Positions 3,436-26,872 of a DNA stretch of 40,477 nt are shown one piece after another. The stretch is taken from sequence record NC_028863.1; one strand, 5' to 3'. The notes under the pieces are model-generated. The model was not told the DNA's origin. It searched no databases and worked only from the letters and a program-made list of their open reading frames with translations. Each line of letters starts with the position of its first letter. The first letter of the stretch is position 1. This stretch comes from Escherichia phage P694. Both the position numbers and the translations under genes were made by a program.

Positions 3436-3458
3436 TAATACGACTCACTATTGGGAAG
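3436..3458 (+). promoter_or_regulatory. Phage RNAP promoter (phiOR-like)
   Basis: TAATACGACTCACTATTGGGAAGG, one mismatch to the T7 consensus at -1. Confidence 0.8.
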
Positions 3459-21491: not shown

Positions 21492-21700
21492 TGGGTGATT
21501 ATCTACGTGTACTGGCGGCTATTAAAAGCTGCCCTAAGACCTTTCAGTCGAACTATGTGCGCAACAATGCGTCACTGGTGGCTGAGGCTGCGAGTCGTGG
21601 TCATATCTCTTGCCTATCAGTCGATGGGCGTAATGCTGGCGCTTGGGAAGTAACAGGCGCTGGTGTCCGATTCCTGAAGAAGATGGGAGGTTGTGTATGA
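21491..21700 (+). CDS. 5.7: gp5.7-like protein (sigma-S RNAP inhibitor in T7)
   Basis: 69 aa ..YLRVLAAIKSCPKTFQSNYVRNNASLVAEAASRGHISCL..., near-identical to T7 gp5.7 as recalled. Confidence 0.88.
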   Translation: MGDYLRVLAAIKSCPKTFQSNYVRNNASLVAEAASRGHISCLSVDGRNAGAWEVTGAGVRFLKKMGGCV

Positions 21701-21876
21701 GTTTGCATACTGACAACGTACAGGTGACTCGTGAAGCGTGGAATGACATGCAAGCGTACATCCAGTCCCTTGAGAAAGACCAAGAGTTCCTGAACGCTCT
21801 GAGAGCCTGTGGTGTGGACAATTGGGATGGCTATTCAGATGCTATCGAAATGGTCTACGGGGAGGACGACTTATGA
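21697..21876 (+). CDS. 5.9: gp5.9-like acidic protein (RecBCD inhibitor in T7)
   Basis: 59 aa from ATG 21697 (GGGAGG RBS); acidic; motif W.D.Q.YI.SLE shared with T7 gp5.9. Confidence 0.65.
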   Translation: MSLHTDNVQVTREAWNDMQAYIQSLEKDQEFLNALRACGVDNWDGYSDAIEMVYGEDDL

Positions 21877-22787
21877 GCGCCATTACACTGAAGGAGTTCT
21901 ATGAGTTACGCCAAGGCAAATCTGACAAGGGTGTCTTGGTCATGGATGGTGACTGGCTGGTATTCCAAGCGATGGCAGCAAGTGAAGTCGAGACCGATTG
22001 GGGTGACGATGTGTGGACATTAGAGTGTGACCATGCGAAAGCGTGGAGTATCCTCGTGGATTCCATTAAGTCCTATGCGAGCCGTAAGAAGGCTTGGCGT
22101 GATGCACCTATCGTGTTGGCCTTCACTGACTCTGTGAACTGGCGTAAGGAACTAGTTGACCCAACCTATAAGGAGAACCGTAAGGCATCCCGTAAGCCTG
22201 TAGGCTACCGTGCGTTCGTCGAGCGTGTTCAAGCCTTTGAGGACTGGACATCTATCCTTGAGCCTCGCTTAGAGGGTGATGACGTAATGGGAATCATTGG
22301 GTCTGGTGCTAAACACTTTGGTTTCAAGAAGGCTGTGCTTGTCTCCTGTGATAAGGACTTTAAGACCATCCCTGATTGTGACTTCTTGTGGTGCACTACT
22401 GGTAACATCTTGACTCAAGACCAGACGACTGCTGACTACTGGCACATCTATCAGACCATTAAAGGTGACTTGACGGATGGCTATGGTGGCATTCCGGGCT
22501 GGGGTGAGACCACTGCTGAGTGGTTAGAGAACCCGTATGCCTTTGAACAGGTTGAGAAAACCTTTAAGTCTGGTGCCCGTAAGGGTCAGACAGTTCTCGA
22601 ATGGAAGAAGGTTGACATGGGAGACCGAACCTTGTGGGAAGCGATTGTGACCCTTGGTGCCAAAGCTGGGATGACCGAAGAGGAAATCATTAAGCAAGGT
22701 CAGATGGCTCGCATCCTTCGTTTCGAAGAGTACAACTTTATCGACAAGGAGATTTACCTATGGTCGCCGGAACAGTTGCGTTCGTAG
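21873..22787 (+). CDS. 6: 5'-3' exonuclease
   Basis: 304 aa from ATG 21873 (GGGAGG RBS); blocks VLVMDGDWLVFQAM, PIVLAFTDSVNWRKELVDP, KDFKTIPDCDFLWCTTGNILTQ as in T7 gp6. Confidence 0.95.
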   Translation: MSAITLKEFYELRQGKSDKGVLVMDGDWLVFQAMAASEVETDWGDDVWTLECDHAKAWSILVDSIKSYASRKKAWRDAPIVLAFTDSVNWRKELVDPTYKENRKASRKPVGYRAFVERVQAFEDWTSILEPRLEGDDVMGIIGSGAKHFGFKKAVLVSCDKDFKTIPDCDFLWCTTGNILTQDQTTADYWHIYQTIKGDLTDGYGGIPGWGETTAEWLENPYAFEQVEKTFKSGARKGQTVLEWKKVDMGDRTLWEAIVTLGAKAGMTEEEIIKQGQMARILRFEEYNFIDKEIYLWSPEQLRS

Positions 22788-22843
22788 CGTTCGCAATCGT
22801 AGCCTTCGCAATAGTGTGGGCTGCATTCATCACAACACTTTGA
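22760..22843 (+). CDS. Small hydrophobic peptide (27 aa; gene 6.3 position)
   Basis: MVAGTVAFVAFAIVAFAIVWAAFITTL; AAGGAG RBS at spacing 8; overlaps the gene 6 3' end in another frame. Confidence 0.45.
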   Translation: MVAGTVAFVAFAIVAFAIVWAAFITTL

Positions 22844-22877: not shown

Positions 22878-22902
22878 TCAATACGACTCACTATTGGAGA
22901 GG
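22878..22902 (+). promoter_or_regulatory. Phage RNAP promoter (phi6.5-like)
   Basis: TCAATACGACTCACTATTGGAGAGG. Confidence 0.7.
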
Positions 22903-22954: not shown

Positions 22955-23200
22955 ATGTTAACCCCTATCAAGAAGTACATGGAGAACCCACAAGATATTC
23001 CTAACGTTCCTCGGAGTGTCATGGAGTATCTACAGGTTCAGTATAATGCTGGATATGCTATTCAGTCTGGTCTTATCAATCGGTTGAAACAGGCTGGGTG
23101 GTCTGAAAGCTACATCGCTGGGTTCCTCGCGGGTCTCAACTATGCGTCTCAAACCTTAGACGACATGGAGGCAATCCGTAAGGAACAGGCAGAATCCTAA
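22955..23200 (+). CDS. Hypothetical protein (gene 6.5 position)
   Basis: 81 aa; AAGGAGA RBS. Confidence 0.65.
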   Translation: MLTPIKKYMENPQDIPNVPRSVMEYLQVQYNAGYAIQSGLINRLKQAGWSESYIAGFLAGLNYASQTLDDMEAIRKEQAES

Positions 23201-23219: not shown

Positions 23220-23498
23220 ATGTGCTGGTCGCCTAAGATTAAAACGCCTAAAGTGGACACTAACAAAGTCCGAGCGGTAGACCCTGCACCACTCACTGAG
23301 GAACCGAAAGGCATCCTCTTTGGTGGCGATGATGATACCGATAAGGACACCGGAACCTCTTCTGAGGTGCCAACTGGTGGCAAGAAGTCCCTGAAGGTGA
23401 AACTGGATGACTCCGTTGAGAAGTCCAAGAAGGCTGATAATGCAGCCAAGAATAAAACTAAGTCTGGTATTCGTACCAGTGTCTTTAAGAAGAGATAA
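23220..23498 (+). CDS. 6.7: gp6.7-like virion protein
   Basis: 92 aa MCWSPKIKTPKVDTN.VRAVDPAPLT..., similar to T7 gp6.7 as recalled. Confidence 0.8.
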   Translation: MCWSPKIKTPKVDTNKVRAVDPAPLTEEPKGILFGGDDDTDKDTGTSSEVPTGGKKSLKVKLDDSVEKSKKADNAAKNKTKSGIRTSVFKKR

Positions 23499-23516
23499 TT
23501 AGGAGGAGTTCGGTAA

Positions 23517-23903
23517 ATGGTTACAGTACATAAGTGCACAGAACGCGCGGCTGCTATTGTCTGGACTGTGGCGCACTTAGGGTTGCCAGAAGGGTTCACT
23601 ACGTTAAGCGAGTATGCTGACTACGTGGATGAACTTATGGATGACGCTGGGTACGAAGAGTTCTACTTTAAGAATGCCAAGGGTTATCCTGTGGCTTATG
23701 TAGCTCTCTGTATCAGCAACGACATACACCATAAGGGTGACATATTGGATATAACCAATATAGTCATTAAGCCACGCTCAGGGTACGCACCTTGGGTCTG
23801 GCGCTGGGTGTTAGCTGAGGCGACTCGTAGAGGTTGCCAGTGGGTCTCCCGTTGTGCACATGAACACGATGGGTCAATTCGAAACGTATTCAAGAGGATA
23901 TAA
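23517..23903 (+). CDS. Hypothetical protein at the gene 7 position (Trp/Cys-rich)
   Basis: 128 aa; AGGAGGAG RBS; I cannot confirm similarity to T7 gp7 from memory. Confidence 0.6.
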   Translation: MVTVHKCTERAAAIVWTVAHLGLPEGFTTLSEYADYVDELMDDAGYEEFYFKNAKGYPVAYVALCISNDIHHKGDILDITNIVIKPRSGYAPWVWRWVLAEATRRGCQWVSRCAHEHDGSIRNVFKRI

Positions 23904-23905
23904 TC

Positions 23906-24256
23906 ATGGGTAAGAAAATCAAAAAGACTATCAAGAAAACTGTTAAGAAAGTCACTAAGCCAGTCAAGAAGGCTGTTAAGCAGGTCGGTAAAGCTGGTGA
24001 GGACATCGTTAAGGGGACTGTAGGCGCAGCCACTGGTCTGCTTGGAGGTGGACAGAAAGAGCCTGAAGTTGTGGTACAACAGGCAGCTCCAGTGGCTGCA
24101 CCCGCTCCTGCTGCACAGATTATTGAGCCACCGAGTAAAGATGATGTTGATACCGATGATGAGTCTCAAACTGAATCAGGCAAAAAGAAAGCTCGTGCTG
24201 GCGGTAAGAAATCACTGAGTGTCGCTCGCAGTTCTGGCAGTGGAATAAACATTTGA
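23906..24256 (+). CDS. 7.3: gp7.3-like tail/host-range virion protein
   Basis: 116 aa; Lys-rich N-terminus MGKKIKKTIKK...; C-terminal ...QTESGKKKARAGGKKSLSVARSSGSGINI as in T7 gp7.3. Confidence 0.82.
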   Translation: MGKKIKKTIKKTVKKVTKPVKKAVKQVGKAGEDIVKGTVGAATGLLGGGQKEPEVVVQQAAPVAAPAPAAQIIEPPSKDDVDTDDESQTESGKKKARAGGKKSLSVARSSGSGINI

Positions 24257-24270
24257 TAAGGAGGCACTAA

Positions 24271-25872
24271 ATGGCAAGCTCACAGAAACGTGAAGGCTTC
24301 GCTGAGAATGGTGCCAAGGCGGTGTATGACGCATTGAAGAACGACCGGAACTCCTATGAGACCCGTGCGGAAAACTGCGCGAAGTACACCATCCCCTCGT
24401 TGTTCCCGAAGGACTCCGATAACGCCTCTACTGACTACACGACTCCGTGGCAAGCAGTAGGTGCTCGTGGTCTGAACAACTTGGCCTCTAAGCTCATGCT
24501 TGCTCTGTTCCCCATGCAGACTTGGATGAAGCTGACCATCTCTGAGTTCGAAGCGAAACAATTGGTAGCACAACCTGCCGAACTAGCGAAGGTCGAAGAA
24601 GGTCTCTCTATGGTCGAGCGAATCTTGATGAACTACATCGAGTCCAACTCGTACCGTGTGACACTCTTTGAGACCCTCAAGCAGTTGGTCGTAGCTGGTA
24701 ACGCTCTGCTGTACATTCCTGAACCTGAAGGGACTTACAATCCCATGAAGTTATACCGACTGTCTTCTTATGTTGTCCAACGAGACGCATTCGGCACGGT
24801 ATTACAGATTGTGACCTTGGATAAGACTGCCTATGCAGCACTTCCAGAAGACGTAAGGAACTCTATGGACTCTGGTCAGGAACATAAGGGTGACGAGATG
24901 ATTGATGTGTACACTCACATTTATCTCGATGAGGAATCTGGAGAGTACCTGAAGTACGAAGAGATTGATGGCGTTGAAGTTGATGGCACAGATGCTTCTT
25001 ATCCGGTGGACGCTTGTCCGTATATCCCGGTTCGCATGGTGCGCATTGATGGAGAGTCATATGGTCGTTCGTACTGTGAGGAATACTTAGGTGACTTACG
25101 TTCACTTGAGAACCTTCAGGAAGCAATCGTCAAGATGTCCATGATTAGTGCAAAGGTTATCGGCTTGGTTAACCCGGCTGGTATCACACAGGTCCGTCGC
25201 TTAACGAAAGCACAGACAGGTGACTTTGTGTCTGGTCGTCCAGAAGACATCTCGTTCCTTCAGTTGGAAAAGGCCGCTGACTTCTCTGTAGCGAAAGCTG
25301 TAAGTGAACAGATTGAAGGCCGACTGTCCTATGCCTTTATGTTGAACTCTGCGGTACAGCGTACTGGTGAGCGTGTGACAGCCGAAGAGATTCGTTATGT
25401 TGCATCGGAACTGGAAGATACCCTTGGTGGTGTCTATTCGATTCTCTCACAGGAACTTCAGTTACCTATGGTTCGTGTCCTGCTGAAACAACTTCAAGCA
25501 ACCAATCAGATTCCTGAGTTACCGAAAGAGGCCGTTGAGCCTACTATCAGTACCGGGATGGAAGCATTGGGTCGTGGTCAAGACCTCGATAAGCTGGAGC
25601 GTTGTATCGCTGCGTGGTCTGCTCTTGCTCCTATGCAGAATGACCCGGACATCAACATTGCGACCATTAAGTTGCGCATTGCGAACGCTATCGGCATCGA
25701 CACTTCTGGTATCCTTAAGACACCTGAAGAGAAGCAACAGGAAATGGCTGAGGCCGCTCAAGGCACTGCTATGGAGAACGCTGCTGCGTCTGCTGGTGCT
25801 GGTGCTGGTGCTCTGGCTACTGCAAGCCCTGAGAACATGCAAGCTGCGGCTGAACAGGCTGGCATGATTTAA
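24271..25872 (+). CDS. 8: Portal (head-to-tail connector) protein
   Basis: 533 aa (T7 gp8 is 536); TAAGGAGG RBS; strong similarity as recalled. Confidence 0.95.
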   Translation: MASSQKREGFAENGAKAVYDALKNDRNSYETRAENCAKYTIPSLFPKDSDNASTDYTTPWQAVGARGLNNLASKLMLALFPMQTWMKLTISEFEAKQLVAQPAELAKVEEGLSMVERILMNYIESNSYRVTLFETLKQLVVAGNALLYIPEPEGTYNPMKLYRLSSYVVQRDAFGTVLQIVTLDKTAYAALPEDVRNSMDSGQEHKGDEMIDVYTHIYLDEESGEYLKYEEIDGVEVDGTDASYPVDACPYIPVRMVRIDGESYGRSYCEEYLGDLRSLENLQEAIVKMSMISAKVIGLVNPAGITQVRRLTKAQTGDFVSGRPEDISFLQLEKAADFSVAKAVSEQIEGRLSYAFMLNSAVQRTGERVTAEEIRYVASELEDTLGGVYSILSQELQLPMVRVLLKQLQATNQIPELPKEAVEPTISTGMEALGRGQDLDKLERCIAAWSALAPMQNDPDINIATIKLRIANAIGIDTSGILKTPEEKQQEMAEAAQGTAMENAAASAGAGAGALATASPENMQAAAEQAGMI

Positions 25873-26847: not shown

Positions 26848-26872
26848 TAATACGACTCACTATTGGGAGAGA
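26848..26872 (+). promoter_or_regulatory. Phage RNAP promoter (phi10-like) with an extended structured leader
   Basis: TAATACGACTCACTATTGGGAGAGA; 146-nt leader to the gene 10 ATG. Confidence 0.85.

Follow-up and report, generated by a model that had tools for sequence, protein, structure and literature searches.

T7 gp7 is among the few proteins of that phage still known only by a decades-old phenotype label, and in Escherichia phage P694 (NC_028863.1) the corresponding position is occupied by an open reading frame (ORF) at 23517–23903 (+), whose product was initially of uncertain identity. The locus raises the questions of whether this ORF is a true gene, whether it encodes the counterpart of T7 gp7 or a module that has taken its place, and what such a protein may do during infection. 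We addressed them within the whole 40,477-nt stretch of P694 DNA (hereafter, the window) and by comparison with related phages.

Gene 7 and its transcriptional context

The ORF runs from an ATG at 23517 to a TAA at 23901–23903 and encodes 128 amino acids (aa), including five Trp (3.9%) and four Cys (3.1%). These counts make the description of the product as Trp/Cys-rich in the initial annotation a fair one; the peptide quoted there, APWVWRWVLAEATRRGCQWVSRCAHEHDG, corresponds to residues 91–119. ORF length alone is no proof of a gene here because two ORFs on the opposite strand, 147 and 157 aa long, overlap the same region. Neither of the antisense ORFs matched a PHROG, the strand that carries them is without phage promoters, and both were rejected as genes. 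The ORF at 23517–23903 is a genuine gene, since homologues are present in 214 phage records, its dN/dS ratio against four relatives is 0.11–0.16, it has a ribosome-binding site (AGGAGG, 23501–23506, +) 10 nt 5' of the ATG, and all eight phage promoter matches in the window are on its strand. The dN/dS values also indicate that gene 7 is under purifying selection. A search for structured RNA returned no Rfam family match anywhere in the window.

The eight matches to phage RNA polymerase promoters (zero expected by chance) have a T7-type core (AATACGACTCACTATTGGGA) and are located on the + strand at 3437, 10711, 11195, 14232, 22880, 26849, 31286, and 38626. The match at 22880–22900 (+; AATACGACTCACTATTGGAGA) is the equivalent of phi6.5, which lies at the same relative position in T7. 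With the next match at 26849, genes 6.5, 6.7, 7, 7.3, 8, and 9 are predicted to share a late transcription unit, and comparison with T7 phi6.5 places gene 7 within it. The unit begins with a gene 6.5 homologue (81 aa, 22955–23200, +; Pfam PF10911, E = 1.1e-42), followed by a gene 6.7 homologue directly upstream of gene 7 (92 aa, 23220–23498, +; Pfam PF17570, E = 1.3e-26). In T7, gp6.7 is an ejected core protein, according to a cryo-electron microscopy (cryo-EM) report (PMC11784390). Directly downstream of gene 7 is a gene 7.3 homologue (116 aa, 23906–24256, +; Pfam PF11653, E = 2.9e-23), and then the portal (head-tail adaptor) gene 8 (24271–25872, +). The ATG of gene 7.3 is 2 nt past the gene 7 stop codon, and the GAGG serving gene 7.3 (23894–23897) lies inside gene 7.

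Several features of the surrounding region were recorded alongside. The genes that flank gene 7 are otherwise closest to those of Berlinvirus-like phages. Genes 7.3 and 8 almost abut (24256–24271); gene 7.7 (HNH endonuclease), which T7 carries at that location downstream of gene 7, is absent there. The gp7.3 protein has 116 aa here versus 96 aa in phages P1338 and pO103; when these are aligned, 12 additional nt (ACTATCAAGAAA, within KKTIKKTVKK) form a Lys-rich insertion close to the N terminus, and the middle part is divergent. Further upstream, a 27-aa, strongly hydrophobic ORF (MVAGTVAFVAFAIVAFAIVWAAFITTL; 22760–22843, +) overlaps the 3' end of the exonuclease gene; it matched no PHROG, and its position is that of the 37-aa hydrophobic gene 6.3 of T7 and of ORF28 in AP10. 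The exonuclease ORF itself (21822–22787, +) is probably over-extended by its mechanically assigned TTG start at 21822, as the gene is annotated with 915 nt in relatives, which fits an ATG at 21873 (MSAITLKEF...). A 77-aa ORF at 21643–21876 corresponds to a gp5.9-like RecBCD inhibitor annotated in relatives.

Orthology to T7 gp7

BLASTP aligned T7 gp7 with residues 10–128 of the P694 protein (46% identity, 61% positives, E = 2e-33). The alignment spans 93% of the protein length, and the two proteins are similar in size (128 aa here versus 133 aa in T7) and have the motifs DIHHKGDILD and WVSRCxHE in common. Residues 2–128 also matched PHROG 2746 ("host range and adsorption protein"; E = 3.7e-40), the members of which include T7 gp7 and a K1F protein. 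Moreover, the gene sits in the same genomic slot as in T7, P1338, and AP10, between genes 6.7 and 7.3 and upstream of the portal gene. Judged from these alignments, the P694 protein is almost certainly a diverged orthologue of T7 gp7, and it is an ordinary member of that family.

The initial annotation had left similarity to T7 gp7 unconfirmed, pending a BLASTP comparison, and had suggested that a replaced, non-homologous module might occupy the gene 7 position. The identity to T7 gp7 of only 46% could be cited for such a replacement, as could the variability of the locus among relatives (discussed below). The idea is nonetheless refuted by the near full-length alignment with T7 gp7 (E = 2e-33), the very outcome that the initial annotation had named as its disproof. 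The two proteins also belong to the same PHROG, the GC content and skew of gene 7 show no anomaly, and its GC content matches that of neighboring genes, leaving replacement a negligible probability. The protein should hence be annotated as gene 7 (T7 gp7-like) protein rather than as a novel module, which for P694 is a routine result.

Differences from T7 were also apparent. The loop between the predicted strand β4 and helix α3 is three residues shorter in P694 (KPRSGYA versus NPEADSKGLQ in T7), and the nearest alleles (89%–98% identity) are found in Berlinvirus- and Apdecimavirus-like phages, not in T7. The closest allele, which is also the top match among the collected phage genomes, is that of Escherichia phage vB_EcoS_P1338 (97.7% identity), followed by those of Escherichia phage pO103 (97%), Salmonella phage PC127 (95%), and Yersinia phage AP10 (89%). 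The BFVD entry A0A0D3QHE4 ("Host range protein", Escherichia phage P694) is 100% identical over 128 residues. The gp7 family is small: when 1.84 billion representative proteins were searched with a profile, only 16 members were recovered.

Distribution of gene 7 among close relatives

The Berlinvirus phages PYPS50 and PP74 have genes 6.5/6.7, 7.3, and portal that closely match those of P694, and gene 7 is missing from both. In alignments, its absence is a clean, cassette-sized gap extending from the gene 6.7 stop codon and ribosome-binding site to the gene 7.3 ATG, and the site that serves gene 7 in P694 serves gene 7.3 in PYPS50. At the nucleotide level, the P694 gene 7 allele was found in 14 phage records (13 of them near full length) versus 85 for the adjacent genes 6.5/6.7, and the records carrying it are from phages of six host genera. 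The genome comparisons indicate that gene 7 behaves as a cassette that close relatives either carry or lack, and that the locus varies in this way and not by the replacement of one gene with an unrelated one. They likewise indicate that gene 7 is dispensable in nature. Because relatives with near-identical genes 6.7, 7.3, and portal do without gene 7, phage assembly does not need it. A preprint on T7 also describes gp7 as non-essential, and as freely edited with no loss of titre (bioRxiv 10.64898/2026.06.25.734514).

Predicted fold and conserved residues

The AF2 model of the gene 7 protein (11 sequences; pLDDT 88.1, pTM 0.80) has the topology β1 (residues 3–6), α1 (11–21), α2 (30–44), β2 (47–52), β3 (58–68), β4 (75–84), α3 (91–104), β5 (109–115), and β6 (121–127). 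The model thereby contains the core order of the Gcn5-related N-acetyltransferase (GNAT) fold (β1-α1-α2-β2-β3-β4-α3-β5-...-β6), and Foldseek comparisons against PDB and BFVD agree with this fold. Helix α4 (motif B) is absent from the model, in which β5 leads straight into β6. Based on the predicted structure, the protein very probably adopts a minimal GNAT fold without α4. In canonical GNATs, α4 lines the CoA (pantetheine/ADP) site. Canonical cellular GNATs (such as PDB 8osp, 3i9s, and 1vkc) differ from gp7 in keeping α4 and in having no conserved His loop.

Sequence searches with the gene 7 protein yielded a sub-threshold match to Pfam PF00583 (Acetyltransf_1; 13.1 bits, below the cut-off of 20.7; E = 0.12) and no match in NCBIfam. 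Nothing significant was returned by phmmer and hmmsearch against PDB sequences; the weak non-repeat matches there (E = 0.2–1) were to β4-α3 segments of GNATs only.

Three segments of the protein carry recognizable motifs. The loop between β3 and β4 (DIHHKG, codons 69–74; 23721–23738, +) is a signature of the family, and its His is kept in PHROGs 2746, 3986, and 5167. The loop between β4 and α3 (KPRSGYA, codons 85–91; 23769–23789, +) is at the position of GNAT motif A (Q/R-x-x-G-x-G/A), which reads P-R-S-G-Y-A here: the G-x-A (G89-x-A91) is kept at the N terminus of α3, and the Q/R is displaced. Of all segments of the gp7 family, this loop has the most indels and the weakest conservation, and only a few lineages keep the Gly. 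Lastly, codons 109–119 (WVSRCAHEHDG; 23841–23873, +) form β5 and a tight turn into β6, and the W-x-[SH]-R within them is common to the gh-1 and phiKMV proteins. Residues conserved across the family (R10, F27, E48, H71, G74, and A102) are not at canonical catalytic or cofactor positions, and close homologues additionally conserve the DIHHKGD loop and WVSRCxH. A family-wide zinc site formed by C65, H71/H72, C107, C113, and H115 was considered and rejected; the residues are invariant in close homologues, but the Cys are not conserved more widely. A zinc site limited to the P694-type clade is possible.

Relatives in other Autographiviridae

The order of a small GNAT-type gene, a 7.3-like gene, and the portal gene was found in all nine Autographiviridae genomes examined (P694, T7, K1F, gh-1, ICP3, SP6, phiKMV, KP34, and LIMElight). 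Genes occupying the slot include those of T7, K1F, gh-1, and ICP3 in the Studiervirinae, SP6 gp28 in the Molineuxvirinae (annotated as "acetyltransferase"), phiKMV gp28 in the Krylovirinae (annotated as "GNAT family N-acetyltransferase"), KP34 gp38 in the Slopekvirinae, and LIMElight ORF37 in Limelightvirus. PHROGs splits the slot genes into four families (2746, 3986, 5167, and 1249).

Profile comparisons connect some of these families. The gp7 family aligned with the gh-1/phiKMV family over 99 columns (hhalign, Prob 95.1%, E = 3e-8), and ICP3 orf35 bridges PHROG 2746 (6e-42) and PHROG 3986 (3e-9). PHROG 5167 weakly matched both the gene 7 protein and phiKMV gp28. The gene 7 protein alone did not match PHROG 3986, and comparisons of single sequences with the gp7 profile were suggestive only (phiKMV gp28, P = 0.002; gh-1 protein, P = 0.00025). 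Taken together, homology between the gp7 family and the family of gh-1 and Rac (the phiKMV-type protein described below) is likely, and we hold it with good confidence. Outside the gp7 family, phiKMV gp28 and SP6 gp28 exceed the Pfam GNAT gathering score, and some gh-1-type proteins carry precomputed GNAT matches.

The gh-1-type proteins (those of Ghunavirus, and VO98_160 of phage phiPsa17) resemble gp7 in belonging to Studiervirinae phages, in occupying the same slot, and in their predicted topology, as a model of this type (pLDDT 91.5) also has no α4. They differ from gp7 in length (~147 aa), in having a longer helical region at the N terminus and a tail at the C terminus, and in belonging to a separate PHROG. 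The D-x-H-x-G loop and the β5-β6 hairpin are present in all of the proteins compared except SP6 gp28 (PHROG 1249), which, unlike gp7, keeps α4 (Y..LGF) and has no conserved His loop. A direct link between gp7 and SP6 gp28 was rejected, as the hhalign comparison of the gp7 profile with SP6 gp28 was not significant; the relation of SP6 gp28 to gp7 therefore rests on its position and its Pfam GNAT match.

The characterized member of this group is Rac, gp28 of phage LUZ19, which is 93% identical to phiKMV gp28. Its gene adjoins, and lies upstream of, the first structural gene (PMC7552054). Expression of Rac alone leads to cleavage of the Pseudomonas aeruginosa RNA polymerase α subunit at Gln244-Glu245, and host transcription falls; purified Rac is not a protease, and the effect is lost when its predicted acetyl-CoA pocket (QYV...AR) is mutated (PMC7552054). 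No acetylated peptide was identified for Rac. The homologue in LKA1 does not cause cleavage of α, making the effect genus-specific even within the Krylovirinae (PMC7552054), and Rac is inert in Pseudomonas putida (PMC11794488). Given this genus specificity and the inactivity in P. putida, the target of Rac is not transferable to enterobacterial phages. The study of Rac lists homologues from Krylovirinae and a small number of further phages only and makes no mention of T7 gp7 (PMC7552054), and we found no paper connecting gp7 and Rac in the literature searched, which omits most subscription journals.

Rac and phiKMV gp28 (PHROG 3986) are similar to gp7 in occupying the slot just before a 7.3-like gene and the portal gene, and in having the D-x-H-x-G loop, the W-x-[SH]-R strand, and, according to the alignment, a β5-β6 hairpin without α4. 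In contrast to gp7, to which it is ~17% identical, Rac retains the whole of motif A (RNTGVA), exceeds the Pfam GNAT threshold, and has an effect specific to Phikmvvirus and P. aeruginosa. The Rac pocket QYV...AR aligns to I82-V83-I84...A91-P92 of the P694 protein, with A91 as the sole identity and about one to two of the five positions kept.

Virion status and possible function

T7 genes 7 and 7.3 are both annotated as "host range". In the literature searched, we found statements on gp7.3 but no primary account of the phenotype behind the "host range" label of T7 gene 7. The initial annotation had correctly placed the gene at the position of T7 gene 7, but calling gp7 a virion protein, as it did, is unsupported. 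Only the name given in databases, "host range and adsorption protein", supports gp7 as a structural, virion host-range protein that contacts the receptor. From the virion proteome of phiPsa17, which does include gp6.7 and gp7.3, the gh-1-type homologue VO98_160 was missing; it is listed in the genome table of that phage only (PMC4517105). In addition, gp14, gp6.7, and gp7.3 are the only small structural proteins listed in the abstract of the T7 cryo-EM report (PMC11784390), and no GNAT is named among the 14 structural proteins of the Ar-KM structural atlas. A globular, enzyme-like fold would also be atypical of a receptor-binding protein. A virion role for gp7 thus seems very improbable.

Instead, gp7 may be a dispensable, non-virion accessory protein that is made late in infection. 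It could act on a host protein, in a Rac-like manner, and thereby improve phage yield only in some hosts; such a host-dependent benefit would agree with the long-standing label "host range". By analogy with Rac, we consider the chances of a host-directed role to be about even. The late co-transcription of gene 7 and its tight coupling to gene 7.3, however, fit a role in morphogenesis equally well. In that case, gp7 would act on phage proteins and thereby secure proper adsorption or ejection by progeny particles on certain hosts, for example, by chaperoning or acylating the Lys-rich, ejected gp7.3 and gp6.7 or the portal-tail junction. Consistent with this are the co-transcription of gene 7 with genes 6.7, 7.3, and 8 from a late promoter, the 2-nt spacing to the gene 7.3 ATG with the gene 7.3 ribosome-binding site inside gene 7, the conserved order of GNAT-type, 7.3-like, and portal genes in five Autographiviridae lineages, and the shared "host range" annotation of T7 genes 7 and 7.3. 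Yet close relatives with near-identical genes 6.7, 7.3, and portal have no gene 7, and, since this phage family keeps its gene order throughout, the conserved order is weak evidence of functional coupling. Furthermore, Rac, which occupies the same slot, acts on the host (PMC7552054). We therefore view help in morphogenesis as unlikely.

The chemistry of gp7 may be considered separately. A fully active acetyl-CoA-dependent N-acetyltransferase with a standard GNAT site would be in line with the predicted core fold, with the G89-x-A91 kept at the N terminus of α3, and with the alignment-based absence of α4 from Rac, which needs its predicted acetyl-CoA pocket all the same. Against such an enzyme, the motif A loop varies by 4–9 residues and its Gly is lost in most family members, the helix that lines the pantetheine/ADP site is missing, the Pfam GNAT match is sub-threshold, and the conserved residues lie mostly in other parts of the protein. 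A canonical enzyme is, on balance, rather doubtful. In a broader sense, acetyl-CoA-dependent acylation by gp7 may still be the single likeliest chemistry, at somewhat less than an even chance; it leads because Rac needs its pocket though apparently also without α4. Stoichiometric binding by a degenerate pseudoenzyme is a tentative alternative, and it or a non-canonical site is nearly as likely as acylation because motif A is degenerate and conservation is displaced from it.

Implications for T7-like phages

A wider, speculative reading is that T7 gp7 and its P694 orthologue descend, in degenerate form, from a Rac-like GNAT gene that was ancestral to the whole of the Autographiviridae and became fixed directly before the 7.3 and portal genes; the products of this gene would reprogram host proteins late in infection, having been retargeted to different host proteins in different genera. 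Such reprogramming could proceed by acylation, or by a new activity at the conserved Glu/His-loop surface and not at the classical acetyl-CoA site. Retargeting by genus, if true, would explain both host-specific phenotypes and the frequent loss of gene 7. For T7, gene 7 thus gains a predicted fold, a characterized distant relative, and a testable hypothesis, a result of modest interest. The GNAT fold, the link to Rac, and the recurrent genomic slot lead to the hypothesis that gp7 is a late-made modifier of a host protein, which may be tested by simple experiments in the best-developed phage model.
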